The notes beneath the pieces are model-generated. The model did no database searches. It was not told the DNA's origin and worked only from the letters and a program-made list of their open reading frames with translations. Of a DNA stretch of 64,000 nt, positions 5,951 through 41,165 are shown piece after piece. Origin of the DNA: Escherichia phage vB_EcoM_VR20. Both the position numbers and the translations under genes were made by a program. The first letter of the stretch is position 1, and each line of letters opens with the position of its first letter. The DNA is taken from the sequence record NC_028894.1; one strand, 5' to 3'.

Positions 5951-6000
5951 TCATCAGTAGTTGATGGGATAATGATACACCATTCAAAGGGGCTTGTACA
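5951..6000 (-). promoter_or_regulatory. Class I early-promoter/leader cassette
   Basis: TGTACA, ~17 bp, TGTATCATTATCCCATCAACTA...GAGGAAAA-ATG. Confidence 0.45.
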
Positions 6001-6008
6001 CCCCTTTT

Positions 6009-6326
6009 TTAATCTTCAATTAAGTCCTGGTCATACCCCAGGGATATCAGTTTTGTTTTAAAGGCAGGAATATTGGTCATTTTTTCATCATTGACAAAAA
6101 TCACCGGGTAACGAATGTTAAGGGTAGGATATCCAGCACGCTTAGCCAGAGACACGATTAAAGGCCTGTCATAAGCGATTTCAGAGCCTTGTTTGTTAAG
6201 GACTGAATAGAATGTATAAGGAAGGTTTAAGGAGCCCAGAAGGCTCCTGACGTGCATACAACCAGGGCATCGACCGACTTCTTCGGGGATACCATAGATT
6301 TCAATCTTAGTCGAGTTTTGGCCCAC
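6009..6326 (-). CDS. nrdH: Thioredoxin/glutaredoxin-fold redox protein (NrdH-like)
   Basis: 105 aa with CPGC redox motif near N-terminus; position just upstream of nrdG/nrdD as in T4. Confidence 0.55.
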   Translation of the reverse strand: MGQNSTKIEIYGIPEEVGRCPGCMHVRSLLGSLNLPYTFYSVLNKQGSEIAYDRPLIVSLAKRAGYPTLNIRYPVIFVNDEKMTNIPAFKTKLISLGYDQDLIED

Positions 6327-6618
6327 AGGAAATCACTCCTTGGTAGTCCCAGGTTTTTAGAACTTCTTCACAAACAGCTTCGTCATCAACAGTTTCATAA
6401 GGAACATAAATCTGAATAAGAAATCCGGTATCGTCGAAGCTGAAATAAACCGTCGGTTTGATTCCGTGAATCTCTGATAGAGCATAGATGTCTTTAAGGT
6501 CTTCTTCCTTATCGACAAAGAATTCCGGGTTCAGGTCACAGTCGTGGAAGTACCATTCATCACCGAACTTGTCCCACGCGGTCCAATTAGTAGTTACATA
6601 TTCTTCAAAACGTTTCAT
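6307..6618 (-). CDS. Hypothetical acidic protein
   Basis: 103 aa ORF. Confidence 0.4.
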   Translation of the reverse strand: MKRFEEYVTTNWTAWDKFGDEWYFHDCDLNPEFFVDKEEDLKDIYALSEIHGIKPTVYFSFDDTGFLIQIYVPYETVDDEAVCEEVLKTWDYQGVISCGPKLD

Positions 6619-6854
6619 TCTTTCACCTTCATCATTTTTGCGATGGTACTATGGATAGCCTGGATTCGTTTGTTGAATTCAGAGCTTTCGAGGCCAGGAT
6701 TGGTGCTTAACCAACCGATGATAACAAACAGCAAACCAAACGGGATGGCCAGAATAAGCAGACAAACGATGAACAAAACAAGCGTTATGTTTGCCAGAAT
6801 ATCTGCTGCAGCATTACGAAATTTATCCATATTTACCCTTAATTGATTAACCAA
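6615..6854 (-). CDS. Small membrane protein
   Basis: 79 aa with long hydrophobic stretch LVLFIVCLLILAIPFGLLFVIIGWL. Confidence 0.4.
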   Translation of the reverse strand: MVNQLRVNMDKFRNAAADILANITLVLFIVCLLILAIPFGLLFVIIGWLSTNPGLESSEFNKRIQAIHSTIAKMMKVKE

Positions 6855-6944
6855 GCATTGATAAGCACTAAACTATACTGCGAATAAAATTCTGGACCAA
6901 AATGAAAAATCATATCATTTATAGTACCCATAATGTAATTCAAT

Positions 6945-7415
6945 TTAATCATGTTTCCACACCCCATCGGTATTTGACCAAAGTCGCTGATTATCTGACC
7001 CTCGCCACAGTTTTTTGGTCGGAAGATTTTTCTCATACTTCCCATCAATAATAACATCAACATATTTAAGCATTTCTAGTTGTTTAATATCTTCAAACTT
7101 ATATCCTGTCCACATCCAAATGCTTTTATTGGGATAAAGATTTTTAATAGTTTGAACCACAGAGTGAATAACATCTCGGTTATCAGGATAGAGAGGGTCT
7201 CCTCCAGTTATAGTTAATCCTTCTATATAATCATTATTCAAACATTCAATTAATTGTTCTAGTGTTTCACCAGTGAATGGAACGCCATTTCTAGCATTCC
7301 ATGTTGATTTATTATAACACCCTTCGCATTTATGCAAACAACCTGTAACGAAAAGAACGACCCTACATCCAGGGCCATTCACAAAATCGCAAGGATAAAT
7401 TCTATCATAATTCAT
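6945..7415 (-). CDS. nrdG: Anaerobic ribonucleotide reductase activating protein NrdG (radical SAM)
   Basis: 156 aa; CDFVNGPGCRVVLFVTGCLHKCEGCYN cysteine cluster typical of NrdG. Confidence 0.85.
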   Translation of the reverse strand: MNYDRIYPCDFVNGPGCRVVLFVTGCLHKCEGCYNKSTWNARNGVPFTGETLEQLIECLNNDYIEGLTITGGDPLYPDNRDVIHSVVQTIKNLYPNKSIWMWTGYKFEDIKQLEMLKYVDVIIDGKYEKNLPTKKLWRGSDNQRLWSNTDGVWKHD

Positions 7416-9699: not shown

Positions 9700-9734
9700 A
9701 ATAAACCCTTACCATTATTAGATAAGGGTATTTA

Positions 9735-12010: not shown

Positions 12011-12999
12011 TTCAGCAGCTCCAGAGCCTGCTCCAGTTTATCCAGACGATTGGTTGATTCTTCCCAAAGTCGCTTGACTTTTGTATAGTCTTCCGTTGCC
12101 TTTTTATTAACAGCAAGAGCTTCATTATACGCTGTTTCCAGGGCAACAATTTCAGGCGCTTTTTGTTTCACTGGTTCATTATTCAGATTATCAATCAGGT
12201 CTTCAAGGGTGGTAACTTCTTGCGGTGTATTCATAATTTCCTCATTTTTCTTTTTATAGATTTCTGCAATAGTTGGTTGTTTTGCGCATTTAACTTCGCG
12301 TAATGTCACCGCAATTTTCCAACCTTTCCAACCATGAGCACTGGTGATAGGGTCTACTTTAATTTTTTCAACAGTGCGCATATAATTAAGGGCACACTGT
12401 ACCTGATGAGTAAGAACACATGCAATATCAAGATACTTTTTAACATTTTCTGGGGTAGCTTGTGGAGTAAAGAACTCATACTTAACTGTAATAATTACCT
12501 GGTTTTCACCAGACTCTTTAACATTTATCATGTGCTCAGCCAGATGGGAGATAGTGCGAAAATCACCACCCATCAATTTTGTCGCTGATTTGATGATAGA
12601 CATTTTGTTATCTCTGAATTCACGTGCCCAGCAATTTGCGAATTCAGAAGCAGTATAGCCTTGTTTATCGAGATAGTATTTTTCAACATCACCAAACCAA
12701 TGATATCCAATTGTACCTTTACCGCGTCTGGATTCAACACCAAACTTATTAAGAAGGTCTTTATTAACCAGGTATGCCAGGACTCGGGAACCTTTAAAAG
12801 TTTTCTTGATATCATCGTTACCAGCACGACTCGCAATAGTTGCAATGTCTTTCTTGAAGCGGCCAGATGCAACAATCGTCGAGTCAATCTGATTTAACCA
12901 GAAATTGATAATTGAAAGGATAGCCGATTCACCTATTAATGGTTTTACTTTTGAATCGATAGTGGTGTTAAAGGCCTGGATATATTCATTACGTGTCAT
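12007..12999 (-). CDS. Hypothetical protein with C-terminal coiled coil
   Basis: 330 aa; C-terminal ~60 aa heptad-like KxxE-rich helix ending [12 protein letters not shown]. Confidence 0.5.
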   Translation of the reverse strand: MTRNEYIQAFNTTIDSKVKPLIGESAILSIINFWLNQIDSTIVASGRFKKDIATIASRAGNDDIKKTFKGSRVLAYLVNKDLLNKFGVESRRGKGTIGYHWFGDVEKYYLDKQGYTASEFANCWAREFRDNKMSIIKSATKLMGGDFRTISHLAEHMINVKESGENQVIITVKYEFFTPQATPENVKKYLDIACVLTHQVQCALNYMRTVEKIKVDPITSAHGWKGWKIAVTLREVKCAKQPTIAEIYKKKNEEIMNTPQEVTTLEDLIDNLNNEPVKQKAPEIVALETAYNEALAVNKKATEDYTKVKRLWEESTNRLDKLEQALELLK

Positions 13000-13057
13000 A
13001 GTGTTCTCCTCATAAAGTAGGAATTCATTATACTCCCTCCATCCTTGGAAGTAAACA

Positions 13058-15169: not shown

Positions 15170-15694
15170 TTATGCGAGAACCGTCTTTAAACGCTCTTCA
15201 AACTTCTGAAGGAGTACATGGCGCTCTGCTCTTTGTTTGATATAGGTTTCAATACGCTCTGAAGTGAGATTGTATTGTTCATTAACTGATTCCCTCATGA
15301 ATTCAGGAATCTCTTTACATGCTTTGATTTCATTGAACTTATCAAGCACCGCTTGTTGTTCAGCAATCAGACCATCATAATATTGGATATCTGATTTGAT
15401 GTTTTGTACATCAGATTCAGTAGGCATATTTTTCTTTGCTCTTGCCGCTTGATATTCTGCATTAGTCTCTCTTGACCAGAACAAAGAGCGGTTTTTGTTG
15501 GTGTTTTTATATACATCAACAATACCAACTGAATCAACAGTCACAATCCAGTTCCAGGCGTTTTTATAAGTTTGACCACCTGATACTGTAATCTCACCCG
15601 CACAAGCAACATCATTAAAGAACTTGCTTTGCGCTTCTGATTTAAAATTACCATTATTGTAATTAATCAGATTAAAGATTGATTTAGCTTCCAT
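15170..15694 (-). CDS. Hypothetical protein
   Basis: 174 aa ORF preceded by class II leader cassette. Confidence 0.45.
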   Translation of the reverse strand: MEAKSIFNLINYNNGNFKSEAQSKFFNDVACAGEITVSGGQTYKNAWNWIVTVDSVGIVDVYKNTNKNRSLFWSRETNAEYQAARAKKNMPTESDVQNIKSDIQYYDGLIAEQQAVLDKFNEIKACKEIPEFMRESVNEQYNLTSERIETYIKQRAERHVLLQKFEERLKTVLA

Positions 15695-15699
15695 TTTAT

Positions 15700-15760
15700 T
15701 CTCCAGTATTTGGTAACTCAGTATGGGAACATTATACGTCTATCCCCATACTATGTACAC
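15700..15760 (-). promoter_or_regulatory. Class II promoter/leader cassette
   Basis: GTGTACA...CGTATAATGTTCCCATACTGAGTTACCAAATACTGGAGAATAAA-ATG. Confidence 0.45.
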
Positions 15761-16071: not shown

Positions 16072-16290
16072 TCACTTGCGACGACGTTTTGGTAATGGTT
16101 TAGGGAAGAACATTGCTTTACCTGCAGGGGTCAAAGTCACACGCAAAGCATTACCAATACCAAGGGATGCTTTAACCAGACCTTTGGCTTTTAACTCGCC
16201 AAATGCTTGACGTTGTTCAGGGTCACGAGTGTTAACCATCAGACCTTTTTCACCAGCAGCTTTGATTAATTCTAACATTTTATTCTCCAT
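16072..16290 (-). CDS. Hypothetical small basic protein
   Basis: 72 aa; preceded by class II leader cassette and terminator. Confidence 0.4.
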   Translation of the reverse strand: MENKMLELIKAAGEKGLMVNTRDPEQRQAFGELKAKGLVKASLGIGNALRVTLTPAGKAMFFPKPLPKRRRK

Positions 16291-16291
16291 T

Positions 16292-16350
16292 TGTTTATTT
16301 GGTAACTCAGTATGGAATCATTATGCATCATGACCATCTGGTTGTACACT
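16292..16350 (-). promoter_or_regulatory. Class II promoter/leader cassette
   Basis: GTGTACA-17bp-GCATAATGATTCCATACTGAGTTACCAAATAAACAAATGGAGAATAAA-ATG. Confidence 0.5.
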
Positions 16351-16356: not shown

Positions 16357-16386
16357 TAAAATAAAAAAGGACCCCGAAGGGTCCTT
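16357..16386 (-). terminator. Rho-independent terminator
   Basis: GGACCCcgaaGGGTCC hairpin followed on minus strand by TTTTTTATTTT; immediately downstream of 16392..17402. Confidence 0.6.
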
Positions 16387-16391
16387 AGAAT

Positions 16392-17402
16392 TTAACGATA
16401 ATAGGAATTGTGGTTGTCAAGATATACCTCTTCAACAAACTTGTCCCAGAACTTCATGTCTACCTTATCAGGCATACCATTCTTAGCGGCCCAGATGGCA
16501 TTAGTTTCGACTTCATCAATGATAGCTTCAAGTTCGGCCTGTACATCTTTAAAAGCATGAAGCCCTTGTTTGATTTCAAGGATAAATGGTGCTGTACGTA
16601 AAGGATATTGGAGGTCACCAGTTTGATAGATTTCCTTCAACTGGTATCCAGCACGATAAGCATGGCTCAGAGCTTTCCAGTCAATACCTTCATTGGCTTC
16701 TGCCTTACGAGCACGTTCACCATATTCGGCATCGAGTTTATTCAGAGATTGCTTGAGCTCGATTAAAGACAAGGTGGTTTGGTACTTACGTCCAAGAACA
16801 GTATAGAACGTTTGAGGGCCTGTTTTCTCGTGGTTATGGAATACCCATTCACAGAACTCATTTTCAGGGAGTCGATGTTTGATATCTTCTACCTTAGTGC
16901 GACGTTGCTTAGTCGAACCATCTTCTTGATAGTCGACCCACTGTTCAGGAATCTGGTTAACGATTGCCAGTACACCACGTAGAGCGGCCAATCGAGAACC
17001 TTTAACACCATACTTAGAAGCTTGCTTGCGGACATAACCCAAATAGGCTTTCATGTTAGTTGTATAGAACCGTGAACGGTTATCCTGGATAAACTTCCAT
17101 ACATCTGGTAAATCGGATTTGACAACCAGGTCAGCCGGGGTGTGAATCATATCCAGGGCAACGGTTTCGCCTTCGGCCGCCAGTTTAAAGAAATATTTCA
17201 GACTATAAAGTTCATGGTCAACATCATCTTTTGTATTTTTGGTAGCCGTGTTATTCGTGTTCAGGTTGGTATGGTTCATCGCCGTCCCAAGTAGAATATC
17301 ACGAGGATGTGGAACAAAGATTTCTTTAAAATCGACATCAGATTCTGGGGTACTTGTTCCATAAAGGTGGCTACCGAAGTAGCCTTTCATAACTGTTCTC
17401 AT
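16392..17402 (-). CDS. Predicted nucleotidyltransferase-fold protein (Pol-beta superfamily-like)
   Basis: 336 aa; N-terminal GSHLYGTSTPESDVDFK fits G[SG]x9-13[DE]h[DE]h signature; start at internal Met with GAGGA SD; ATGA overlap with upstream membrane ORF. Confidence 0.5.
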   Translation of the reverse strand: MRTVMKGYFGSHLYGTSTPESDVDFKEIFVPHPRDILLGTAMNHTNLNTNNTATKNTKDDVDHELYSLKYFFKLAAEGETVALDMIHTPADLVVKSDLPDVWKFIQDNRSRFYTTNMKAYLGYVRKQASKYGVKGSRLAALRGVLAIVNQIPEQWVDYQEDGSTKQRRTKVEDIKHRLPENEFCEWVFHNHEKTGPQTFYTVLGRKYQTTLSLIELKQSLNKLDAEYGERARKAEANEGIDWKALSHAYRAGYQLKEIYQTGDLQYPLRTAPFILEIKQGLHAFKDVQAELEAIIDEVETNAIWAAKNGMPDKVDMKFWDKFVEEVYLDNHNSYYR

Positions 17403-19417: not shown

Positions 19418-19701
19418 TATTCCACCACATATGATAATGAGAAAATTGCTGATGAAAGATGAGTAGCATCTTCTTCACACAGTTCAAATGGAGCTTTCTG
19501 CAAGAGTTCAACCACTTCTTCATCAGTGGCACTGTCCATAAAGATTGCATAATCGTTAAGATAGATAACAACCTCATCACCAGTATTAACTGCATCAATC
19601 TTGATGTTCTTAATTCTCATTGTATTCTCCTCAGTAGTTGATGGGATAATAGTACACCCTTTTGATGAGGATGTAAACCCCCTAAATGAAAAAAGGTCCA
19701 C
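19417..19701 (-). CDS. Hypothetical protein
   Basis: 94 aa ORF preceded by class I promoter cassette. Confidence 0.4.
   Translation of the reverse strand: MDLFSFRGFTSSSKGCTIIPSTTEENTMRIKNIKIDAVNTGDEVVIYLNDYAIFMDSATDEEVVELLQKAPFELCEEDATHLSSAIFSLSYVVE
19630..19680 (-). promoter_or_regulatory. Class I early-promoter/leader cassette
   Basis: GTTTAC...GTGTACTATTATCCCATCAACTACTGAGGAGAA. Confidence 0.4.
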
Positions 19702-19721
19702 CCGAAGGCAGACCTTTTGAA

Positions 19722-23076: not shown

Positions 23077-23535
23077 CTAGATATAAATCACTTTTGTGCT
23101 AATTTTTCCTTCCAGACGATTAGAGTTAACAAACGCCATACGACAACACATGGTTGGAGACTTCCCAGGTAATGCCGGGTTAACTGTCATTCCTAACCAT
23201 AGGTTCTTGTCTGTGATTTCCAGACGAAGTGGACGGTAGTTCACATTCGGGTCAATTTGTGCTTCAACTTCTGGAAGCGGTTCCATTTTTAAGAATTCAA
23301 CAATTTCTTTTACATGTGGTGTGATTTTTCCAAACAAGTCAAAAACATATTGTTCGTCAATTTCACGTTGGATTGCACGGTCCAACAGGTGTGGACTGTA
23401 CTTAATGAAGAATGCTTCAAGGCCTGCTTCTTTACAAGCCTTGTTGATAGCATTATTAATTTTGAGGAACTCCGTTTCAAAAATACGACGAAGTTTATTG
23501 CGGCGAATGTAAACACTTGAATCAATAGTAGTCAT
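23077..23535 (-). CDS. regB: Endoribonuclease RegB
   Basis: 152 aa from internal Met; VYIRRNKLRR...YSPHLLDRAIQREIDEQYVFDLF...LEITDKNLWLG...CRMAFVNSNRL matches T4 RegB. Confidence 0.8.
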   Translation of the reverse strand: MTTIDSSVYIRRNKLRRIFETEFLKINNAINKACKEAGLEAFFIKYSPHLLDRAIQREIDEQYVFDLFGKITPHVKEIVEFLKMEPLPEVEAQIDPNVNYRPLRLEITDKNLWLGMTVNPALPGKSPTMCCRMAFVNSNRLEGKISTKVIYI

Positions 23536-23554
23536 GATTATCTCCTTTTGTTTG

Positions 23555-24171
<617 letters not shown>

Positions 24172-25366: not shown

Positions 25367-25666
25367 TTAGAAAGAACCAGAGCCTTTAATTGTGTTCTGG
25401 CGACCTTTATTTTCTAATTCAGAATGGTCAATTTCATATGCTTGTGCTACGCCAAAGGCCTTTTTAACTTTAGCTAAAGAACCTTTAGATGTAACAATAT
25501 TAAAAGTATTACCTTTAGTAAAATCAACCAAATCCACTTGTACACCTTGTTTACCGAGGCTTGCGACAATAGCATCAACATATTGTTGGTCTAAATTGCC
25601 CTGGACTCCGATTTGAAATGCTTTAGGAGCTTTAGCTTCTGTGATAAATTCTTGATAAGTTTTCAT
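25367..25666 (-). CDS. Internal-protein-like ORF with capsid targeting sequence
   Basis: 99 aa; N-terminus MKTYQEFITE (CTS-like) with I-x-E site. Confidence 0.55.
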   Translation of the reverse strand: MKTYQEFITEAKAPKAFQIGVQGNLDQQYVDAIVASLGKQGVQVDLVDFTKGNTFNIVTSKGSLAKVKKAFGVAQAYEIDHSELENKGRQNTIKGSGSF

Positions 25667-25674
25667 TTATTCTC

Positions 25675-25725
25675 TCCAAGTTGATGGGATAATTATGCAC
25701 TATCCCATCAAAAAGTAAACAGTTA
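25675..25725 (-). promoter_or_regulatory. Class I early-promoter/leader cassette
   Basis: GTTTAC-17bp-TGCATAATTATCCCATCAACTTGGAGAGAA; inverted repeat GATGGGATA..TATCCCATC around -10. Confidence 0.5.
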
Positions 25726-25999: not shown

Positions 26000-26314
26000 T
26001 TAAGCTTTAGGGAAATCGCGCAAAAACGCATCATAAAGTTTATTACCAATACGACGGAATGCTTTTGCTGCATGAACGTTATCCGGGTTTGCAATTTTAA
26101 TCTGCATTACATGACTACCCGCCCATGATTTAGCTTCGTCATAATAACCTTTAATTTCTTTAATAGTCTTGCGTTTGCCGCCAGGACCATCAACAGTAAT
26201 TTTCCACGAACCCGTGCTTGTTTCACTTGGTGGGGTTAATTGTTCAATCCAGACATAACCGCCTTCAACACGTTTTTGGGTGGATTCAGTAATAAATTCT
26301 TGATAAGTTTTCAT
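26000..26314 (-). CDS. Internal-protein-like ORF with capsid targeting sequence
   Basis: Start taken at internal Met giving MKTYQEFITEST...; 104 aa. Confidence 0.5.
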   Translation of the reverse strand: MKTYQEFITESTQKRVEGGYVWIEQLTPPSETSTGSWKITVDGPGGKRKTIKEIKGYYDEAKSWAGSHVMQIKIANPDNVHAAKAFRRIGNKLYDAFLRDFPKA

Positions 26315-26362
26315 TTTATATTCCATTGTTTGGTTGATAAAATCATTATACAACCTTTTTAG

Positions 26363-26779
26363 TTAAGCGTACACAGCTTTCCCATAGTATTTGTACCAGG
26401 TAGGCTTTTGAGAAATTTTCTCATTCAATCTGGCTTGACTGATTTCAATTGACCAGATTGATGGTTGATAATCATTCTTCCATTCATCAGGAATATCATT
26501 TAAATCTTGGGTAGAAATATCTTTTATGTTAAACCCTCGCTTTAAACATTCCGCAATAAGTTCTTGATGACGGTTTTTAAGGAACAAAAGTTTATCATAA
26601 AAGAAGGTGACATGACCAGTCCCTAAAAGAAAAGATGATGGGATTTTAAAGTCAGAAACCTTTTTACCATTTTGTACATGTTTGCGAACCGCACCAAACA
26701 CGCGAGGAAGCTCACGATATTCAGCCATAAGATGTTGGTCAGCAAGTTCAGATACCAGGGTTAAATTAATGCGAGTCAT
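26363..26779 (-). CDS. denV: Endonuclease V (pyrimidine-dimer DNA glycosylase) DenV
   Basis: 138 aa; [35 protein letters not shown]... nearly identical to T4 DenV. Confidence 0.9.
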
Positions 26780-26789
26780 GTTTGTTCCT

Positions 26790-26830
26790 CCAAGTAGTTG
26801 ATGGGATAATAATACATCAATACGAGGAGG
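26790..26830 (-). promoter_or_regulatory. Class I early-promoter/leader cassette
   Basis: TATTATTATCCCATCAACTACTTGGAGGAA upstream of denV. Confidence 0.45.
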
Positions 26831-26838
26831 TTGTAAAC

Positions 26839-28896: not shown

Positions 28897-29576
28897 CCCT
28901 CCATAGGGAATTCCAGATATACTTGAGCATTAACGCGGATTTCATTTGTAATCTTTTTAACACGGTCGGTATTACGAGACACACGACCAAACCAGCGCCA
29001 CCCGTTACTTACTGCACGAGAACCTGTATGCCATGTCTGCCAATCAAACTGGAGCAACGTGCGGTCAGGAGCATCCCACTTGGTTAATTCATTGGACTCA
29101 ATTTTTTCCAGAACTTCTTTATGCCACTGGCGATAGATAAGTTCACCTTCAGGAATCTGACTAAATTGGGCAGTTCCGGTTGCAAAATAAGTAGGACACA
29201 CATCAGCGTTAACAAGACCAAGAATATGTTCAGAATGGTAACGAGGATTATCATAATCAGGTTGCCCTGCAGTAATAAAGTGTTGACCAACCGGAATATC
29301 CGGACGCGGTACATCATCATGGTGATAACCTGGGATAGCAGGATACCAACCAGGCATTAACATATGTACACGAGAATCGAATACGACATTTTCATTAGTC
29401 CAATCAATCGGAAGATTGGTAATAAAACTACGAGTGATTGGGCCGCCTTTATCCCAAGCAAAACTCAAATCACAGTTAAAGAACATCGGTTCATTTTTGA
29501 TTTGATCGTTTTGAACATCGTGAGCAAAACCACTTACGGCACGAGCTCGGCTATTAAACACTTTAGAACTATTCAT
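28890..29576 (-). CDS. Hypothetical protein (possible enzyme, His/Asp-rich)
   Basis: 228 aa ORF; GYHHDD and YHSEH segments; no confident family. Confidence 0.45.
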   Translation of the reverse strand: MNSSKVFNSRARAVSGFAHDVQNDQIKNEPMFFNCDLSFAWDKGGPITRSFITNLPIDWTNENVVFDSRVHMLMPGWYPAIPGYHHDDVPRPDIPVGQHFITAGQPDYDNPRYHSEHILGLVNADVCPTYFATGTAQFSQIPEGELIYRQWHKEVLEKIESNELTKWDAPDRTLLQFDWQTWHTGSRAVSNGWRWFGRVSRNTDRVKKITNEIRVNAQVYLEFPMEGW

Positions 29577-29584
29577 AATATTTT

Positions 29585-29635
29585 CCTCATTGATTGTGGG
29601 ACCATTGTGTCATGGTCCCACTTGGATGTACACAC
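29585..29635 (-). promoter_or_regulatory. Promoter-like element with inverted repeat around -10
   Basis: GTGTACA...GTGGGACCAtgacacaaTGGTCCCAC...GAGGAAAATATT-ATG. Confidence 0.4.
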
Positions 29636-30609: not shown

Positions 30610-30777
30610 TAGTAAAGACGAGTTACTTCATATTTTCCAAGTGCCGATTTTTTCGCTTCAATTCGTGAGGCAGCAAGATTGGCGGCCTCTAGTGAAGAAA
30701 ATTGAACCACTTGAGAAGTATTCTGTCTTACTCCACCTTGCGGGTGAGTGACAAAAACAATAAGAACATTATACATA
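30610..30777 (-). CDS. Hypothetical small protein (55 aa)
   Basis: ORF MYNVLIVFVTHPQGGVRQ... with conserved GAGGAAAATATT-ATG initiation region; below track cutoff. Confidence 0.3.
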
Positions 30778-30784
30778 ATATTTT

Positions 30785-30830
30785 CCTCATTAGTTGACGA
30801 GATAATGATACTACGTTTCTTTAGGCTTGT
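30785..30830 (-). promoter_or_regulatory. Class I early-promoter/leader cassette (variant)
   Basis: GTGTACA...TATCATTATCTCGTCAACTAATGAGGAAAATATT. Confidence 0.4.
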
Positions 30831-30879
30831 ACACTAAATTTCTGCACATAAGTCCTCCTATCACATCCTTGTGATAATT

Positions 30880-33414: not shown

Positions 33415-34008
33415 TTACTTAAGTGAATTGATGTATTCTTCAATGTCAGCGGATGTGGTATCCACACCAACCTGTGGACCTTTGAAGGTTTCAACACGCA
33501 TCAGAGTGTCTTCAATATCAATCTTAGTCAATGCAGCGATTTCAACAACATCATCTGCGGTTGCAATACCTAGGGCAGACACCTTACGGGTTTCGCGGAT
33601 GTATTCCAGTTTAACAGCTAGTTCCTGACGAGAGTCATCCAGCTCTTTAACTTTCAATTTAATTTCATTACGCATTTCAACATAATCATCTGCCTTCTTA
33701 CGAAGTTGTTTAGCAGTGCGACGATACAGGAGACCCAGTTTAGCATGGACCTGGACATCAGCACCATCAGCAATCAGTTTACGAATTTCACGCTCTTTTG
33801 AAGCGGCGAGCTGGTCTTTTTCATTCGCTAGCTCGCGGATGCGTTTTTCTTCATTAACAGACTTAACGTGGGCAGTCTGGAGCTCAGTAATCTTATCAAT
33901 CAGGGTAGAAGCAGCTTTAGTATACTGGTCTTCAATAGACAGGTTTTGCGCCATTGCAGTACCCAGTTTGGAGCGGATAAATTCAACAAGTTTCTTTAAA
34001 GTATTCAT
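33415..34008 (-). CDS. Coiled-coil protein (possibly PspA/IM30-like)
   Basis: 197 aa, largely predicted helical with heptad-like charged repeats; family assignment unverified. Confidence 0.4.
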
Positions 34009-34083
34009 GGTATTTCCTTCAGATGGTTAAAGTTTTATTATCCAGGGAACATACTATCATGTTCCCAGAGGTATGTAAACATT

Positions 34084-34482
34084 TTATTTCATTTTTGCGA
34101 GGCAGATTTCATTGGCTTCCCATTGAGCTTGCTTAATAATAGCTTTGGATACAGGAACCTTTTGACCATAAGTTTTTGACGTTGAGAGAACAATATATTT
34201 GTTTGCCTCATTATGCCAGCCCCATGATTTTTCACCATGAGTACCTTTAACTACAGCTGACACCTCAACAGAACAACCATCAGCGCCAATCTTGGTATCA
34301 ACAATCCATTCATTTCGCTTAATTGCTTCTTCCAATGCTGCTGCTTCCGCCATCCAGTGTGTTTCAGGGTCTATTTGTTCAATCTCACGAGTTAACGCAG
34401 CTCCCAGGTCTTTTGCATATTTTTGTTGCTCTGGGGTTAATGAGTCATATAACTTTTTCATTTCTTTATCTTCAATATTCAT
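34084..34482 (-). CDS. Hypothetical protein
   Basis: 132 aa from MNIEDKEMKK with GAGGAAAATATT SD. Confidence 0.45.
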   Translation of the reverse strand: MNIEDKEMKKLYDSLTPEQQKYAKDLGAALTREIEQIDPETHWMAEAAALEEAIKRNEWIVDTKIGADGCSVEVSAVVKGTHGEKSWGWHNEANKYIVLSTSKTYGQKVPVSKAIIKQAQWEANEICLAKMK

Positions 34483-34516
34483 AATATTTTCCTCAAGGGG
34501 CTTTCGCCCCAATCAT

Positions 34517-34822
34517 TTAAATTTTGTTTTCCTGCACACCATAATAAAGTTCATCAGACACAATATCCAGGATGCGGCGAACATATTCATCATGGTATTG
34601 GCAGTCAAAATCAAATGCAACAGTAGTTTCCGCTTCACGAGTGAATTTAACTTGCACATTCAGGTGATTAACAACGTTAGTTAATTTATCAGTAAAGAAC
34701 TCTTTTGCTACCGCCTGTTGGACTTGCACTTTGAACTTGGTGTTACGAATCATATTTTCAGCAGATGTGAAATTACCAGTTTTATCAAAGTCAACAAGCG
34801 CCAGGTTGATGATGAATTTCAT
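34517..34822 (-). CDS. Hypothetical protein
   Basis: 101 aa ORF preceded by class II leader cassette. Confidence 0.45.
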   Translation of the reverse strand: MKFIINLALVDFDKTGNFTSAENMIRNTKFKVQVQQAVAKEFFTDKLTNVVNHLNVQVKFTREAETTVAFDFDCQYHDEYVRRILDIVSDELYYGVQENKI

Positions 34823-34824
34823 TT

Positions 34825-34900
34825 TATTCTCCAGTGTTTTATTTGGTAACTCAGTATGGAATCATTATGCCTTAAAGCAGGGGGCTTGTATACCCCCTTT
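34825..34900 (-). promoter_or_regulatory. Class II promoter/leader cassette with upstream GC hairpin
   Basis: GGGGGtatacaagCCCCC hairpin, then GCATAATGATTCCATACTGAGTTACCAAATAAAACACTGGAGAATAAA-ATG. Confidence 0.5.
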
Positions 34901-34904: not shown

Positions 34905-35348
34905 TTAAATTTCAAATTCTTTGCGGAAGTTGGAAGCATAAGACTGAACTGATGCTTTGTTGAATCCAAACTCACGCACAATCATATCAATAACAGCTCT
35001 GCGAGCAGCACCGTTAGACATATTAACAGTTCTGAACATATCATAGCATAAATCTTTGTTGCTCATACCGGAGCGTTTAGGTGCCTTACGTTCAGCTTTT
35101 GGTTCAGCTTTAGGAGTAGGTTTAACTTCTGGTTTAACCTGTCCATCATTCAGACCTTTAAAAATTTTACCTGCCAGAGTTGCCAGTTTAGCAGCTTCGC
35201 CACGAGTGATACCAAATACTGCCGGGTTAAATGAAATACCTTCAGCTGTCAGACGTTTGAAGAACATACGTGCTGCGGATTGTGCTTCAGCTTCAGAAGA
35301 GTTGTTTAATGCCAGTTTAACATACTTAACCAGTTTTGAAGTTTTCAT
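34905..35348 (-). CDS. Hypothetical protein, paralog family with conserved C-terminal domain
   Basis: 147 aa; C-terminus ...NGAARRAVIDMIVREFGFNKASVQSYASNFRK shared with 35801..36226; class II leader upstream. Confidence 0.5.
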   Translation of the reverse strand: MKTSKLVKYVKLALNNSSEAEAQSAARMFFKRLTAEGISFNPAVFGITRGEAAKLATLAGKIFKGLNDGQVKPEVKPTPKAEPKAERKAPKRSGMSNKDLCYDMFRTVNMSNGAARRAVIDMIVREFGFNKASVQSYASNFRKEFEI

Positions 35349-35349
35349 T

Positions 35350-35420
35350 TTATTATCCCGTTTGTTTATTTGGTAACTCAGTATGGAATCATTATGCCTT
35401 AGTTAAATTCCAAAGTACAT
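35350..35420 (-). promoter_or_regulatory. Class II promoter/leader cassette
   Basis: GCATAATGATTCCATACTGAGTTACCAAATAAACAAACGGGATAATAAA-ATG. Confidence 0.5.
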
Positions 35421-35421: not shown

Positions 35422-35718
35422 TTAATTTTCAGAAGTTGGGAAATAAACTTCAAAGTCATACATGTTTACTACTGCAGTCGCGATTGCTTGGTACTGCATA
35501 CCCAAGAAAGTTTTCTTGTTCTTACGCCACAAGTTAACCATTTCTGTTTTGATGCATGCCAGGGAGTAGTTGGATGCAGGATACTGTTTGATGATTGCAA
35601 CAACTTCTTCAGAAGCAGTTTCGCACAATTCATTCAGTTGAGCTTCAATTTTAGCAGAAATGATTGCTTTGTTTTCTTCTTGAGCTTGGGTAGCGTGCCA
35701 TGCAGGTGCGTTGAACAT
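35422..35718 (-). CDS. Hypothetical protein
   Basis: 98 aa ORF, class II leader upstream. Confidence 0.45.
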   Translation of the reverse strand: MFNAPAWHATQAQEENKAIISAKIEAQLNELCETASEEVVAIIKQYPASNYSLACIKTEMVNLWRKNKKTFLGMQYQAIATAVVNMYDFEVYFPTSEN

Positions 35719-35719
35719 T

Positions 35720-35790
35720 TTATTCTCCAGTGTTTTATTTGTTAACTCAGTATGGGATAATTATACACTATCCCACCTGGAAGTAAAACA
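35720..35790 (-). promoter_or_regulatory. Hybrid class I/II promoter/leader cassette
   Basis: GTGTATAATTATCCCATACTGAGTTAACAAATAAAACACTGGAGAATAAA-ATG. Confidence 0.5.
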
Positions 35791-35800: not shown

Positions 35801-36226
35801 TTATTTTTGAGCTTTGCGGAAGTTGGATGCATATGACTGAACAACAGTCTTTTTGATATCATGGGTGGTAACCAGAACATCAATCAGAGCGCGACGAGCT
35901 GCATTATCATTCATATCAATTTCTGCAAATGCCTGGAAGCAAATGTCACGAGCATTACCAGATTTGGACTGGATTTTTTCTTCTTTAACTTCTTCAATTG
36001 GGAATTCAATCATTTCAGCTTGGATTAATTCAATGATAGATTCTTTTGACTGTTTGGTGTTTACCTTCAGTTCAGAATTAAGGGACTTGGCGATGGCAAC
36101 AATCTGGGTTGAAGTCAGATGAATAAGTGCATCTTCACGAATGCAGATTTCACATACTTCGTCAGCAACCATTTTGTTGGTGATGCGGGTAACAGAAAAT
36201 GCAGAGGTCAGGGTCAGAAAGTTCAT
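35801..36226 (-). CDS. Hypothetical protein, paralog of 34905..35348
   Basis: 141 aa from internal Met MNFLTL; C-terminus ...DNAARRALIDVLVTTHDIKKTVVQSYASNFRK. Confidence 0.5.
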   Translation of the reverse strand: MNFLTLTSAFSVTRITNKMVADEVCEICIREDALIHLTSTQIVAIAKSLNSELKVNTKQSKESIIELIQAEMIEFPIEEVKEEKIQSKSGNARDICFQAFAEIDMNDNAARRALIDVLVTTHDIKKTVVQSYASNFRKAQK

Positions 36227-36227
36227 T

Positions 36228-36320
36228 TTATTTCTCCAAAGTTTTGTTTGATTCAGTGTGTAACTCAGTATGGAATCATTATGCGCCGGGTCAATTCGGA
36301 TGTACACTACTTTTTGAAGA
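36228..36320 (-). promoter_or_regulatory. Class II promoter/leader cassette
   Basis: GTGTACA...GCATAATGATTCCATACTGAGTTACACACTGAATCAAACAAAACTTTGGAGAAATAAA-ATG. Confidence 0.5.
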
Positions 36321-36344
36321 AAATTTCAAATTTATTCGGGGTAT

Positions 36345-36365
36345 AAAAAAGCCCGCAATGCGGGC
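36345..36365 (-). terminator. Rho-independent terminator
   Basis: GCCCGCaatGCGGGC hairpin followed on minus strand by TTTTTT, 3 nt after stop of 36368..36922. Confidence 0.6.
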
Positions 36366-36367
36366 TG

Positions 36368-36922: not shown

Positions 36923-36948
36923 AAATTTCCTTAGTTATGGGTACGTTA

Positions 36949-36984: not shown

Positions 36985-37032
36985 AAGCCTTGCGGCAACC
37001 TTGTCGGGGTTCCACCTGCTAGGCAAGTGTTC

Positions 37033-37893: not shown

Positions 37894-37910
37894 ATAATAT
37901 CCTCAGTAAT

Positions 37911-37987
37911 TGGTCGGGGTGGTGGGATTCTAACCCACAACCTACGGTTTAGAAGACCGTTGCTCTATACAATTGAGCTACACCCCG
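37911..37987 (-). tRNA. tRNA-Arg (anticodon UCU), CCA encoded
   Basis: Manual cloverleaf: acceptor CGGGGTG/CACCCCG, D-stem GCTC/GAGC, anticodon stem ACGGT/ACCGT, loop CTTCTAA, T-arm GTGGG-TTAGAAT-CCCAC. Confidence 0.8.
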
Positions 37988-37989
37988 AG

Positions 37990-38062
37990 TGGCCCCATCC
38001 GGACTTGAACCGGAAACCTGCCAGTTATGAGCCGGATGCTCTAACCAATTGAGCTACAGGGC
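37990..38062 (-). tRNA. tRNA with CAU anticodon (Met or Ile)
   Basis: Manual cloverleaf: acceptor GGCCCTG/TGGGGCC, D-arm GCTC-AATTGGTTA-GAGC, loop CTCATAA, T-arm TCCGG-TTCAAGT-CCGGA; one mismatch in anticodon stem. Confidence 0.7.
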
Positions 38063-38068
38063 CTAAAA

Positions 38069-38341: not shown

Positions 38342-38456
38342 CTCAAATAAAATTAAGTAAAGTAAGTTTGATTAATAGCACATGCTATTATGAAAGATTC
38401 TTTGAGGGAAGAACCTTTGGTAATAGAGGGTACTTATTAATAATAACGCGTTTTTG

Positions 38457-38939
38457 TTAAAGCATATCAAGCGCTTTAACAGATGGGATTCGGATTTCTT
38501 CTTCGATTATATATAGCTTAACATAAGAAATTACACGCATGAAATCGCCATCATATTCGCAAGCCATACCTAAAAGTTCAGTCAGAGCTTCATTCAGGTA
38601 GTATTCTTCATCATCGTCATTCAACAAGGCTTCCAAATCTGCAATACCAAGAACTTTATTCAAAAATTCATAAGTCAACTGCCCAGATTTTACACCAGAT
38701 GCAATGTGGGCGATAACCAAGTGTTTAACCACATCCCATTCTGAATTACCACATTTATTGCGGTTGTTACAATGCGAACCATGGAAAAGTTCCAGGATAT
38801 ATTTGTACTGTTGGATTTCTTGTTCTTCTACGCCAAATACCATTTGGGTTTTATAGTTGTCACCATCATTTTCCCAGGTTTCAATTTCAATCGCATAACC
38901 TTTAGGGATGGTCTGACCAAATTTGATATTCATTCGCAT
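38457..38939 (-). CDS. Hypothetical acidic protein
   Basis: 160 aa ORF. Confidence 0.45.
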   Translation of the reverse strand: MRMNIKFGQTIPKGYAIEIETWENDGDNYKTQMVFGVEEQEIQQYKYILELFHGSHCNNRNKCGNSEWDVVKHLVIAHIASGVKSGQLTYEFLNKVLGIADLEALLNDDDEEYYLNEALTELLGMACEYDGDFMRVISYVKLYIIEEEIRIPSVKALDML

Positions 38940-39319
38940 GTTCCTTCATCAACAATAGTATGCGTATTGGCATTAACAATCTGCCACCAGTCAAAACGGT
39001 TGGAACCATAACAAGGCTTTTTCTCGTTTTCTTTAATGATATCGCGCAGTTCATCTTCAGTCGCAGCTTTTGCAATTAAGTCAGCATAACCGCCACGAGG
39101 ATAATAACTATCACCAGCAAAGAGCAAAAAGTTTGTTTTGATATTCTTGAATTCTTCAAGAGTAATAACTGTTCCAGATGGTTGAACAATATCTACGTAA
39201 CTATATCCTAATTTCTGGGCATTATCTACCGCTTCAAGCAGGGTGTCATGTGCCCACCCAATTTGGCACTCTGGCTTTTCAGATGGATTGGCCTGATAAT
39301 CCGCATACACTTTATACAT
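38930..39319 (-). CDS. Hypothetical protein
   Basis: 129 aa from internal Met MYKVYADYQ with AAGGTGAG SD. Confidence 0.45.
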   Translation of the reverse strand: MYKVYADYQANPSEKPECQIGWAHDTLLEAVDNAQKLGYSYVDIVQPSGTVITLEEFKNIKTNFLLFAGDSYYPRGGYADLIAKAATEDELRDIIKENEKKPCYGSNRFDWWQIVNANTHTIVDEGTCE

Positions 39320-39320
39320 T

Positions 39321-39506
39321 TTACTCACCTTTAGACATTTTATCCATAACGAAAGAGATTGAACCAATTAAGAATGCAACTACTAAAGAGATTATATTCT
39401 CAGAAGTTGAAAGCATATTCAACATAAAGCCAGCGAACATGCTAAAACCAAAAGCGGTAACAGCAACAAAGGCAGTAACATTTCTAATTAATTCGCAACG
39501 TTTCAT
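39321..39506 (-). CDS. Small membrane protein
   Basis: 61 aa; two hydrophobic segments; class I promoter cassette upstream. Confidence 0.4.
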   Translation of the reverse strand: MKRCELIRNVTAFVAVTAFGFSMFAGFMLNMLSTSENIISLVVAFLIGSISFVMDKMSKGE

Positions 39507-39514
39507 TTTATTCT

Positions 39515-39570
39515 CCTCATTAGTTGATGGGATAATTATACACTATCCCATATCTAAAAGTACACTTATT
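39515..39570 (-). promoter_or_regulatory. Class I early-promoter/leader cassette
   Basis: GTGTAC-~18bp-TGTATAATTATCCCATCAACTAATGAGGAGAA; IR TGGGATAG..TATCCCA. Confidence 0.5.
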
Positions 39571-39799
39571 TTTTACGGAAAATTGATTTATACTGTTTAG
39601 CCCATTTCTCGATAACTTCTGCTGGACCCTGGATAACAAAATAGTCCCCAAACTCTTCACCGCCGAGCTGACCGTAATTATCTAAGGCGTCGCGGAGAGT
39701 TCCATAAGGCATTTCGCCCATTTTATCTTTCTTGCCGGTGTAAATGAATTGCACTTTAACATCAGCAGTTTCATTAATAAATTCTTGATAAGTTTTCAT
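39566..39799 (-). CDS. Internal-protein-like ORF with capsid targeting sequence
   Basis: 77 aa; MKTYQEFINETADV. Confidence 0.55.
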   Translation of the reverse strand: MKTYQEFINETADVKVQFIYTGKKDKMGEMPYGTLRDALDNYGQLGGEEFGDYFVIQGPAEVIEKWAKQYKSIFRKK

Positions 39800-39804
39800 G
39801 TTGT

Positions 39805-39860
39805 CTCCAGTAGTTGATGGGATAATTATACTGCAGTTATCCCATCACGTACACTAAATT
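39805..39860 (-). promoter_or_regulatory. Class I early-promoter/leader cassette
   Basis: GTGTAC...GATGGGATAACTGCAGTATAATTATCCCATCAACTACTGGAGACAAC-ATG. Confidence 0.5.
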
Positions 39861-40132
39861 TTTGTATATTGTCCAGCTTTAACTTTTTTCAGTTCACGAG
39901 GGCTTACCGCGTAAGTGAATGGAGCATTCCAGGAAGAACTGACTTTGTAACCTTTAGTCAACATCATTGCTGAAACTTTCTTGTTATCAGGACCGTTTTC
40001 GCCTTTAACAAGAAACAACTCAAATGCGCCACCATCAACCGGTTTGGCCTTAACCATCAGATGTCCTTTCAGGTCTTCCAGCATATCCGGGTGACTAATT
40101 GATTCGTTAATAAATTCTTGATAAGTTTTCAT
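39854..40132 (-). CDS. Internal-protein-like ORF with capsid targeting sequence
   Basis: 92 aa; MKTYQEFINESISHPDMLE. Confidence 0.55.
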   Translation of the reverse strand: MKTYQEFINESISHPDMLEDLKGHLMVKAKPVDGGAFELFLVKGENGPDNKKVSAMMLTKGYKVSSSWNAPFTYAVSPRELKKVKAGQYTKI

Positions 40133-40144
40133 TAGTAGCTCCAG

Positions 40145-40195
40145 TAGTTGATGGGATAATTATACTGCATTTATCCCATCGTGTACATTACATTT
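40145..40195 (-). promoter_or_regulatory. Class I early-promoter/leader cassette
   Basis: TGTACA...GATGGGATAAATGCAGTATAATTATCCCATCAACTACTGGAG. Confidence 0.5.
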
Positions 40196-40487
40196 TTGAA
40201 CCGCGAATCACGCCATAAGCTGCGAAGTCGTCAGTGATGTTCTTAGGGGTGTTTTTACCAGTTTCAATATATGCGATGCTGGATTTCTGACCAAATGAGG
40301 TAATTTTATTATAGTTAGAGTCAAGGAAAGTATAACCATTTTTACGCAGCTGGTCAAAGTCTTCAGCGTCGCCTTTACCTTTGAAGTCAACCCATTTGTA
40401 TGTGTTTTTCTTCTGAAGGCCCAGAGGCCAGGTTTTTGCTTCTGCCAGGTAATTATTTTCTACCAAAAATTCGTGGAGCGTTTGCAT
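40188..40487 (-). CDS. Internal-protein-like ORF with CTS-like N-terminus
   Basis: 99 aa; MQTLHEFLVENNYLAE. Confidence 0.45.
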   Translation of the reverse strand: MQTLHEFLVENNYLAEAKTWPLGLQKKNTYKWVDFKGKGDAEDFDQLRKNGYTFLDSNYNKITSFGQKSSIAYIETGKNTPKNITDDFAAYGVIRGSKM

Positions 40488-40495
40488 TTGAAATC

Positions 40496-40768
40496 CTATT
40501 TTAGATAAATTGCATATTTTTTATAACCAGCTGTCTCATGGCGGAGACCCTTGTCATTGGCAAAACGCTCAATGTTGTTGATTTGGTTCTGGTCAAGTTC
40601 AGAGATGTCAAACGCGAAAAAGTTGCGTTTGTTACCAATTGTTATATGGTCAGTTAAGTCAATGCTATACAAGTGATTGATATTGTCAATCATAGCTTTG
40701 ACTGCTTTACTAATTTTTACTTCTTCATTCAGTTGGGACTCGTTGAAAAGTTCATTAAAAGTTTTCAT
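40496..40768 (-). CDS. Internal-protein-like ORF with CTS-like N-terminus
   Basis: 90 aa; MKTFNELFNESQLNE. Confidence 0.45.
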   Translation of the reverse strand: MKTFNELFNESQLNEEVKISKAVKAMIDNINHLYSIDLTDHITIGNKRNFFAFDISELDQNQINNIERFANDKGLRHETAGYKKYAIYLK

Positions 40769-40776
40769 AAGAAACC

Positions 40777-41109
40777 TTATTTATACAGTTTAGCTAGTTC
40801 TTTACGTCCGCGAGCAGACATAATGAATTGTTCATCACCAATTTTGAAATAAGCCATACCGCCGTCAACAGCGATGCCAATTTCTTTAGTACCTTCTTTG
40901 CCTTTCCACTTACCACCAGATTTCAGGACAGCTTCAACTGCAGCTTTGGAATATTTGGACGTTTGAAAACGTTCATTACCAATCTGAAAGAAAACACCAT
41001 CTGCATTTTTGGATAAACCAAATTTCAGAGAGCCTTCACTATCATCAATTGATTTGGTCTCATTGATGGCGGATTCGGCTAAAAACTCGTTGTAAGTTTT
41101 GATGTTCAT
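40777..41109 (-). CDS. Internal-protein-like ORF with CTS-like N-terminus (ipI position)
   Basis: 110 aa; MNIKTYNEFLAESAINE; directly upstream of 57B. Confidence 0.5.
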   Translation of the reverse strand: MNIKTYNEFLAESAINETKSIDDSEGSLKFGLSKNADGVFFQIGNERFQTSKYSKAAVEAVLKSGGKWKGKEGTKEIGIAVDGGMAYFKIGDEQFIMSARGRKELAKLYK

Positions 41110-41165
41110 TTTAACTCCGTTTGTTCATTGGTGTAGGAACATAATACTGCACCTACACTCATTTG
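41110..41165 (-). promoter_or_regulatory. Promoter-like element with inverted repeat around -10
   Basis: TGTACA...GTGTAGGtgcagtattatgttCCTACAC upstream of the ipI-position gene. Confidence 0.4.

Follow-up and report, generated by a model that had tools for sequence, protein, structure and literature searches.

Inverted repeats around the -10 element of T4-type early promoter cassettes in Escherichia phage vB_EcoM_VR20

Why should the -10 element of a phage early promoter lie inside an inverted repeat, and in which molecule, if any, do the two arms of that repeat come together? The question is raised by a 64,000-nucleotide stretch of the genome of Escherichia phage vB_EcoM_VR20 (NC_028894.1; hereafter the window, position 1 being its first letter), assigned by megablast to the T4-like coliphage genus Gaprivervirus. 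A first-pass annotation, made from the letters of the window alone, had described there a set of repeated promoter/leader cassettes upstream of minus-strand accessory genes and suggested that they share an operator or an RNA element. Here we describe these cassettes, the complementarity of their arms, and the evidence that points to pairing on one strand, probably in RNA that reads through from upstream.

Early promoters and the complementarity of their arms

Promoters were sought with a pattern made of GT[G/T]TAC, 17-19 nt and TAnnnT, followed by a Shine-Dalgarno sequence (SD), an ATG and an open reading frame (ORF) of at least 35 codons. This T4-specific pattern and the SD/ORF context were required because a generic sigma-70 promoter scan does not discriminate in this DNA (52 matches vs 46 expected). 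The pattern occurs at 24 minus-strand sites, as opposed to four weak matches on the plus strand, and about 20 of the 24 occupy intergenic junctions, so the description of these elements as promoter/leader cassettes of minus-strand early genes holds. Cassettes are named by the position of their -35 element; the four lowest calls (10432, 5845, 5300 and 3970), which are within or close to coding sequence and some of which are probably spurious, were left out of the feature list (Table 1).

About 20 of the sites have the layout of a T4-type early promoter, with an A-tract (AAAAA..TA, as in a UP element), GT[G/T]TAC, an 18-nt spacer and TATAAT, upstream of minus-strand early genes, and the predicted +1, the seventh nucleotide after the -10, is A in nearly all cassettes. 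The core 15-mer TGTATAATTATCCCA has 14 matches with at most three mismatches (3.5 expected; 0/100 shuffles). By sequence, the cassettes are strong T4-type, sigma-70-dependent early promoters, and the sites are annotated as early promoters in fPS-90 and Lutter too. Over all of its 71 nt, cassette 39565 has 85-87% identity with annotated early promoters in T4-type phages (e.g. fPS-90), and its 3' portion (query positions 40-71) aligns to T4 PE1 in GenBank X03016. A scan of IMG/VR with GTGTAC-N17-19-TAYWAT-N8-12-CAACTAC returned 38 loci, mostly on unrelated contigs, with few useful T4-like ones among them.

Nine minus-strand sites have TATCCCAT immediately 3' of the -10 hexamer (-35 positions 6001, 19678, 23592, 25720, 26838, 35788, 39565, 39854 and 40188), with GT[G/T]TAC, or ATGTAC/TTTTAC, 17-19 nt upstream and an SD and ATG 16-41 nt downstream. 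The first-pass annotation had counted at least nine copies with the inverted repeat; the nine sites are there, but only five (25720, 35788, 39565, 39854 and 40188) have the upstream arm GGGATA, which is absent at 6001, 19678, 23592 and 26838. It had also listed two further sites with other arms, and while both (41170 and 34080) were recovered, they are not alone: the same -10-enclosing geometry with unrelated arms recurs at 29633, 15760 and 16349, and more weakly at 26838 and 26374.

In about half of the cassettes one arm lies in the spacer and is complementary to positions -7 to about +4, so that the two arms could form a hairpin with the -10 in its loop. When the spacer, the -10 and 16 downstream nt were folded and the spacer alone was shuffled, a -10-enclosing hairpin was obtained at p<0.05 for 12 of the 24 predicted promoters (1.2 expected), with free energies of -13 to -20 kcal/mol in nine of them and of -5 to -10 kcal/mol in 16349, 26374 and 26838. 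A swap test, in which each spacer was paired with the downstream segment of another promoter, gave helices of at least 7 bp in 9/25 true pairs vs 8% of swapped pairs in the window (0/2000 permutations), in 4/17 vs 1.8% in T4, and in 24/86 vs 3.6% in the pooled set. This excess indicates that the complementarity of the arms is specific to each promoter.

The arms also covary. In a gap-free alignment of 15 same-register promoters from Gaprivervirus, Tequatrovirus and Dhakavirus, whose rows had been picked for a helix in the tested register, 85% of the cells were paired and 11 of the 12 pairs had changes on both sides; double-change cells numbered 43 vs 14.8±3.0 in shuffles (0/500), and the covariation score of 0.66 fell to 0.13-0.22 when the partner was slid by 1-3 columns. 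Among the orthologues of cassette 29633, for instance, the window has C-G at one position of the helix where VR25 has U·G and TH57 has U-A. In related phages the arms are either conserved or changed with their complementarity kept.

The mismatches that remain are of one kind. Inside the helices of 37 unique arm pairs, read on the sense strand, we counted 13 G·T or T·G mismatches and a single A·C. Since transitions should produce G·U and A·C equally, the excess of G·U points to pairing on the sense strand only, in mRNA-sense RNA or, less plausibly, in the non-template DNA strand. Covarying arms together with this bias argue for a single-stranded, presumably RNA, hairpin over a protein operator. 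A DNA cruciform was considered and rejected, since extrusion would be unfavourable for arms 7-11 bp long around loops of 6-17 nt, and the asymmetry of the mismatches points to one strand.

The hairpin in read-through RNA and the alternatives

In the hairpin cassettes the predicted +1 falls within the 3' arm, 2-4 nt short of its end. The promoter's own transcript would therefore lack the 5' arm, and only RNA reading through from upstream could fold; the leaders of the primary transcripts are predicted to be unstructured. This speaks against one of the two functions originally suggested, an RNA element in the promoter's own leader. Upstream, the stop codon of the preceding gene ends no more than 12 nt from the -35 hexamer in 11 of the 12 hairpin promoters (+12 for 26374). 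Most promoters that have no -10 hairpin show either a separate upstream terminator or hairpin (terminators at 19678 and 36307, a hairpin at 30834) or a GGGG/CCCC stem over the -35, the latter at 6001 and 34893 only.

The reading that we favour, and hold to be probable, is that the hairpin present in about half of these T4-type promoter cassettes has its role in RNA that reads through from upstream. The hairpin would act as RNA and would form solely in transcripts that arrive from upstream early, middle or late promoters, where it would sit directly after the stop codon of the upstream gene. Its likeliest role there would be that of a 3' structure or insulator for the upstream cistron: it might be a barrier to 3' exonucleases after a cut by RegB or another RNase in the leader, a pause or weak termination signal, or both, and it would mark read-through RNA apart from RNA initiated locally.

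We put forward only tentatively, as a possibility with the odds against it, the wider idea that promoter-embedded hairpins are a general RNA-level punctuation of T-even phages, in which a 5' arm housed in the spacer gives all read-through transcripts a tag that is absent from RNA initiated locally. If so, the extent of the 3' arm would decide whether the upstream 3' end is protected or the downstream ribosome-binding site silenced, and such punctuation would replace U-tract terminators in tight early regions and set the balance between mono- and polycistronic RNA. If the RNA reading is true, the 'promoter inside a hairpin' logic of T4 late genes would extend to early promoters; if it is wrong, the cassettes are still ordinary early promoters with RegB-sensitive leaders. 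Across three genera the repeat shows strong covariation and a sense-strand G·U signature.

Several points weigh against the read-through reading. The rows of the covariation alignment were selected for the helix; allowing for shared descent, the G·U excess amounts to about ten independent events vs about two, and it is equally compatible with a DNA hairpin in the non-template strand. Quasipalindrome-templated mutation, for which T4 is the classical system, could keep the arms complementary without selection. RNA start sites and read-through RNA at the cassettes are themselves inferred from sequence. The association of hairpins with abutting stop codons is descriptive and, with about 20 promoters, not significant. 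No T-run follows any -10 hairpin and the terminator scan called none of them, so they are not canonical terminators, and cassette 16349 has a canonical terminator as well as a hairpin, which means that the hairpin is not needed for termination there. Finally, the enrichment of indel breakpoints in cassettes (36 of 144 ends, or 25%, in comparison with six relatives, the cassettes being 7.5% of the region) is inflated by shared descent and by gene-sized indels that end in intergenic DNA.

Among the alternatives, the one that survives best, although we think it unlikely, is a translational gate of the kind found at T4 e, soc, 49 and I-TevI, in which a hairpin in read-through RNA blocks ribosome binding downstream and only transcripts from the embedded promoter are translated (Uzan & Miller 2010, PMC3014915). 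The geometry is the same, with the promoter inside the hairpin, the 5' arm upstream of the internal promoter's start, the start in the 3' arm and only read-through RNA able to fold. The T4 hairpins, however, contain the SD or the AUG and belong to late or middle promoters, whereas the promoters in the window are early and their 3' arms end 16-40 nt before the AUG, leaving the SD outside the helix. Some spacers do hold an anti-SD word (CCTCC, TCTCC or CCTCA) able to pair with their own SD in read-through RNA. Such spacer-SD complementarity is seen at T4 denV (TCTCCTGTAG/CTACAGGAGA), T4 regB and Lutter denV (CCTCCAAG/CTTGGAGG), and in the window at 26838 (denV), where the spacer CCTCC complements the SD GGAGG, and at 19678, where the spacer CCTCA does so; in the denV promoter of TH41-TH44 an anti-SD helix lies outside an inner -10 helix. 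Words of the CTCC type are enriched in T4 spacers (5/18 vs a background of 5.5%, p=0.002) but not in those of the window (anti-SD words in 3/24, p=0.18), where helix and anti-SD scans made no outer anti-SD helix evident for most -10 hairpins. The computed accessibility of the SD and AUG was noisy and did not differ consistently between read-through and primary transcripts. A permutation test of spacer/SD complementarity was discarded as invalid, the SDs being all alike and the orthologues not independent.

Slightly less credible still, in our judgement, is that the inverted repeat has no function in expression and is a by-product or facilitator of DNA transactions: hairpins of single-stranded DNA might favour template switching or a PeSL-like recombination of cassettes, and correction templated by the quasipalindrome might maintain the complementarity of the arms. 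The cassettes are indeed recombination sites, as hybrids and the breakpoint enrichment suggest, and G·T is the least destabilising mismatch in DNA hairpins too. In the analogous promoter-early stem-loops (PeSLs), mini-circles have been demonstrated, and a role of the stem-loops as recombination targets was put forward as speculation (Arbiol 2010, PMC2839356). However, the crossovers observed here fall in the shared leader downstream of the hairpin and not at the hairpin, homology alone accounts for them, a one-strand asymmetry is unexpected of cruciforms, and many independent arms in one register to the -10 across three genera argue for selection.

That the hairpins are intrinsic terminators of the upstream gene is improbable. 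They directly follow stop codons, canonical minus-strand terminators are few between 25 and 42 kb, the stem-loop at T4 PE1 carries the label 'pot. IpI terminator' in X03016, and PeSL stem-loops terminate in reporter assays (Arbiol 2010, PMC2839356); yet the sequence after the -10 hairpins (…TATCCCATCAACTAC…) has no U-tract, none was called by the scan, loops of 6-17 nt are large for terminators, and 16349 has a canonical terminator besides.

The weakest candidate, to which we give very little credence, is the shared operator of the first-pass annotation, a DNA dyad on whose arms a dimeric phage or host protein would switch early promoters off: it has the classical repressor geometry of a dyad centred on the -10, several arms with a GGGA/TCCC core in common, and the attraction of supplying a cause for the still unexplained shut-off that T4 early transcription undergoes about 3 min into infection, and which neither AsiA nor ModA explains (Hinton 2010, PMC2988021), but it is opposed by at least 12 unrelated arms in one genome or genus (e.g. 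GATGGGATA, GTGGGACCAT, GGGAACAT, GTGTAGG, CAGTATGGGA, GATGAGGTA, TCCTAGAATTGTGA), by loops that vary from 6 to 17 nt, by arms that covary so that complementarity and not sequence is conserved, by a 13:1 tolerance of G·U over A·C that is meaningless for duplex recognition and indicates one-strand pairing, and by the absence of any inverted repeat from half of the early promoters, that of regB included. A role of the dyads as the missing shut-off operators is much less likely than RNA-level punctuation.

Comparison with T4 promoters and PeSL cassettes

The design is known from T4, through an annotation of 1985, the internal protein (IP) loci in 1994 and PeSL-like elements in 2010, and is more widespread in the VR20 phage. 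In X03016 (T4, Broida & Abelson 1985) PE2, of ipI, and PE1, of trna.4, are annotated with -35, -10 and an overlapping 'pot. stem-loop structure'; our search of the literature found no functional test of this -10 inverted repeat, noted in T4 since 1985. PE1 is orthologous to cassette 39565, with which it shares its place upstream of trna.4 and the leader ATCAACTACTGAGGAGAATAAAATG. PE1, PE2 and the window are laid out alike (GTTTAC is followed by a spacer that holds the 5' arm, the loop contains the -10, and the 3' arm extends into the start site), whereas the arms differ, being GATGAGGTA/TACCTCATC and ATAGGGT/ACCCTAT in T4 and GATGGGATA/TATCCCATC and others in the window. The T4 ipII and ipIII promoters have arms of 13 bp and 8 bp around the -10. 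The hairpin accompanies about four of 13-18 early promoters in T4-type loci, for the most part those of IP loci, as compared with about 12/24 in the window, where non-IP genes (nrdC.8, e.6, gp134 and gp146) are among those preceded by it.

Repeats of about 70 bp, with an early promoter and an overlapping inverted repeat, reportedly flank the IP genes of T-even phages (Repoila et al. 1994). These repeats resemble the cassettes in that a promoter with an overlapping inverted repeat is followed by an SD and the conserved IP N-terminal leader (MKTYQEFI...); they reportedly stand on both sides of IP ORFs, and a part in shuffling was proposed for them. Cassettes 25720, 39854 and 40188 answer fully to this description, and 26374 precedes an IP-type ORF with a weak hairpin only; unlike such repeats, most cassettes in the window precede non-IP genes, and a second, genus-specific family of leaders is present.

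PeSLs are known from RB49/phi1, PST/T4 and nt-1/KVP40 (Arbiol 2010, PMC2839356; Comeau 2014), and in RB49 their stem-loops, placed upstream of the promoter, gave termination when assayed with reporters (Arbiol 2010). The T-even IP early-promoter/stem-loop elements were described there as analogues and not homologues of PeSLs, with weaker and AT-richer stem-loops (PMC2839356). The cassettes resemble PeSLs in their succession of A/T-rich region, stem-loop, early promoter, SD and ATG, and in lying in hyperplastic early regions, in association with indels of single ORFs through recombination of neighbouring copies. They differ in the stem, which in PeSLs is a G_n-loop-C_n terminator upstream of the promoter and in the window encloses the -10 (in two cases the -35), without a U-tract and with mixed sequence, and in the promoter, which is near-consensus TTGACA-N17-TATAAT in PeSLs and has the T4-early -35 GT[G/T]TAC in the window.

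Leaders, exchange of genes and gene context

The leader was originally described as conserved up to the start codon. A 23-nt leader does have five matches (0 expected), but the exact form ATCCCATCAACTA(A/C)TGAGGAGAA occurs only twice. What is conserved is the T-even initial-transcribed consensus ATCAACTAC, followed by the RegB/S1 site GGAGAAUAAAA. T4 early promoters carry …CTATCAACTAC… after the -10 in common with the window, and the region around the start site (TATCCC-A-TCAACTAC) is, by sequence comparison, the T-even early-promoter consensus; conservation past the -10 is thus largely due to this general consensus (…TATCAACTAC…), T4 included. Extra conserved regions in T4 early promoters have been described (Hinton 2010, PMC2988021).

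The 3' part of the leader, GGAGAAUAAAA(UG), matches the 11-nt target of RegB/S1 (GGAGAAUAAAA, GGAGRAYARAA), which was defined experimentally (Durand 2006, PMC1702504). Five cassette leaders (39565, 35788, 34893, 16349 and 15760) have it exactly, as against 0.3 occurrences expected in the whole window, others match nearly, and the SD of regB itself is GGAG. The proposal that the GGAG in the leader is a RegB-type site is thereby strengthened; this likeness covers only the 3' part of the leader and not the inverted repeat, and the SD is predicted to double as a RegB/S1 cleavage site. The window does encode RegB, as had been claimed; this endoribonuclease, which cuts early leaders at GGAG, was identified by Pfam (Table 1).

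A second family of leaders, type II, of the form CCATACTGAGTTACC...GGAGAATAAAATG, has six copies in the window and 5-6 in each of six Gaprivervirus relatives, and was found in none of the T4-type and Dhakavirus loci examined (T4, Lutter, TH09 and the IME08 locus); on this distribution the family is genus-specific. These leaders are 35-50 nt long, read (GA/TA)TYCCATACTGAGTTACC-A-rich-GGAGAATAAAATG, and are predicted to be unstructured.

Table 1 Cassettes and related features of the window (dG, hairpin free energy; p, hairpin test; aa, amino acids)
Feature	Coordinates	Strand	Arms	Remarks
Cassette 41170	41107..41170	-	GTGTAGG 41158-41152, CCTACAC 41137-41131, flanking -10 at 41146-41141	Upstream of 110-aa ORF (VR7 gp156-like); dG -14.8, p=0.000
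Cassette 40188	40130..40188	-	GATGGGATAA 40180-40171, TTATCCCATC 40159-40150	Upstream of IP-like ORF92 (MKTYQEFI...); p=0.000
Cassette 39854	39797..39854	-	TGATGGGATAA 39847-39837, TTATCCCATCA 39825-39815	Upstream of ip6-like ORF77
Cassette 39565	39504..39565	-	ATGGGATA + TATCCCAT, within 39551-39527	Upstream of trna.4 homologue; orthologue of T4 PE1; leader AUCAACUAAUGAGGAGAAUAAAAUG with exact RegB/S1 site
Cassette 36307	36224..36307	-	No inverted repeat	Type II leader; canonical terminator upstream, 36350-36366
Cassette 35788	35716..35788	-	TGGGATA + TATCCCA, within 35775-35753	Upstream of ORF98; type II leader, exact RegB/S1 site; p=0.000
Cassette 35420	35346..35420	-	Weak, TGGAAT/ATTCCA	Type II leader; p=0.24
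Cassette 34893	34820..34893	-		Type II leader, exact RegB/S1 site; PeSL-like, -35 in GGGGG/CCCCC stem loop
Cassette 34080	34006..34080	-	GGGAACAT 34066-34059, ATGTTCCC 34052-34045	Upstream of e.6 homologue; p=0.000
Cassette 30834	30774..30834	-	No inverted repeat around -10	TATCTCGTCAACTAATGAGG
Cassette 29633	29574..29633	-	GTGGGACCAT 29621-29612, ATGGTCCCAC 29605-29596	Upstream of ORF228 (VR7 gp134-like); dG -19.6, p=0.000
Cassette 26838	26777..26838	-	Weak, TTGATG/CATCAA	denV promoter; p=0.010
Cassette 26374	26312..26374	-	Weak, GGTTG...CAACC	Upstream of IP-like ORF104 (ip10-like); p=0.013
Cassette 25720	25664..25720	-	TTGATGGGATA 25711-25701, TATCCCATCAA 25691-25681	Upstream of IP-like ORF99 (ip7-like); dG -18.0, p=0.000
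Cassette 23592	23533..23592	-	No inverted repeat	regB promoter, TATGAT TATCCCATCAAACAAAAGGAGAUAAUC AUG
Cassette 19678	19618..19678	-	No -10 inverted repeat	Upstream of mobD.5 homologue; exact type I leader; canonical terminator upstream
Cassette 16349	16276..16349	-	Bulged, CAGATGGTCAT/ATGATTCCATACTG	p=0.013; type II leader, exact RegB/S1 site; canonical terminator upstream
Cassette 15760	15692..15760	-	AGTATGGGGA + TTCCCATACT, one G·U pair included	Upstream of nrdC.8 homologue; type II leader, exact RegB/S1 site; dG -16.2, p=0.003
Cassette 13056	12997..13056	-	No significant inverted repeat	Upstream of nrdC.4 homologue
Cassette 6001	5938..6001	-	No -10 inverted repeat	Type I leader; -35 in GGGG/CCCC stem loop, then TTT
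Type II leader copies	15692-15726, 16276-16315, 34820-34859, 35346-35386, 35716-35755, 36224-36273	-
regB	23077..23535	-		Pfam REGB_T4, PF10715, E=3.7e-72

Their repetition makes the cassettes substrates for homologous recombination, by which single genes are inserted, deleted or swapped, and comparison with relatives shows single-gene indels of this kind, with crossovers that map by sequence inside cassettes. The 98-aa ORF98 (35422-35718) and the 92-aa IP-like ORF92 (39854-40132) each lie between two cassettes and are precisely missing from some relatives. ORF98 is absent from TH41 and TH15, both of which carry a hybrid of the 35788 promoter and hairpin with the 35420 leader, and ORF92 is absent from VR25, which is left with a hybrid of cassettes 40188 and 39854. 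Both look like recent cassette-mediated insertion or deletion events. The denV promoter cassette is wholly different between relatives and tracks the upstream gene. Further indel breakpoints lie at 34066, in six relatives, and at 30789-30833. This behaviour matches what has been described for the T-even IP-locus repeats and for PeSL cassettes, and it accounts for the places at which single accessory genes come and go, among them those of injected internal proteins that act against host defences; the cassettes also show how the start regions of transcription and translation, about 20 of them, can be annotated in Gaprivervirus genomes. A stretch of about 450 bp (34066-34515) that adjoins cassette 34080 on its upstream side is present in the window and missing, with an identical breakpoint, from all six relatives compared.

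Stems of the form GGGG(G)...CCCC(C) at 5996-6011 and 34879-34898 lie over the -35 and are flanked by A- and T-runs, giving a PeSL-like overlap of terminator and promoter; the second was called a plus-strand terminator by the scan. Canonical intrinsic terminators stand directly upstream of cassettes 16349 (16385-16410), 19678 (19690-19720) and 36307 (36350-36366), for example GGACCC-TTCG-GGGTCC-T6, and the classical order of terminator then promoter is thus found beside overlapped versions.

By megablast, vB_EcoM_VR7 is 98% identical over 39-41 kb of the window (the IP region) and VR25 94% identical, with 97% coverage, over 5-29 kb. The annotation of VR25 describes a classical T4 early region, with all genes on the minus strand of the window, in the order gp55, nrdH/G/D, 49, nrdC.x, mobD.x, rI, tk, vs, regB, ip, denV, e, e.x, tRNA, trna.x, ip and 57B/A. 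Four ORFs (25367-25666, 26000-26314, 39566-39799 and 39854-40132) begin with MKTYQEFI, the leader by which T-even internal proteins are targeted to the capsid, and a fifth ORF (40777-41109) begins MNIKTYNEFL. Pfam gave no match for any of these five, which are candidate injected anti-defence proteins.

A scan of the whole window against Rfam at the gathering threshold returned two tRNAs only, with no family matching the cassettes. The two neighbouring tRNA genes, Arg-TCT and Met-CAT (37911-38063, minus strand), are far fewer than the eight of T4, and no part of the region is more rearranged among relatives than the segment that flanks them, 36.35-38.38 kb.

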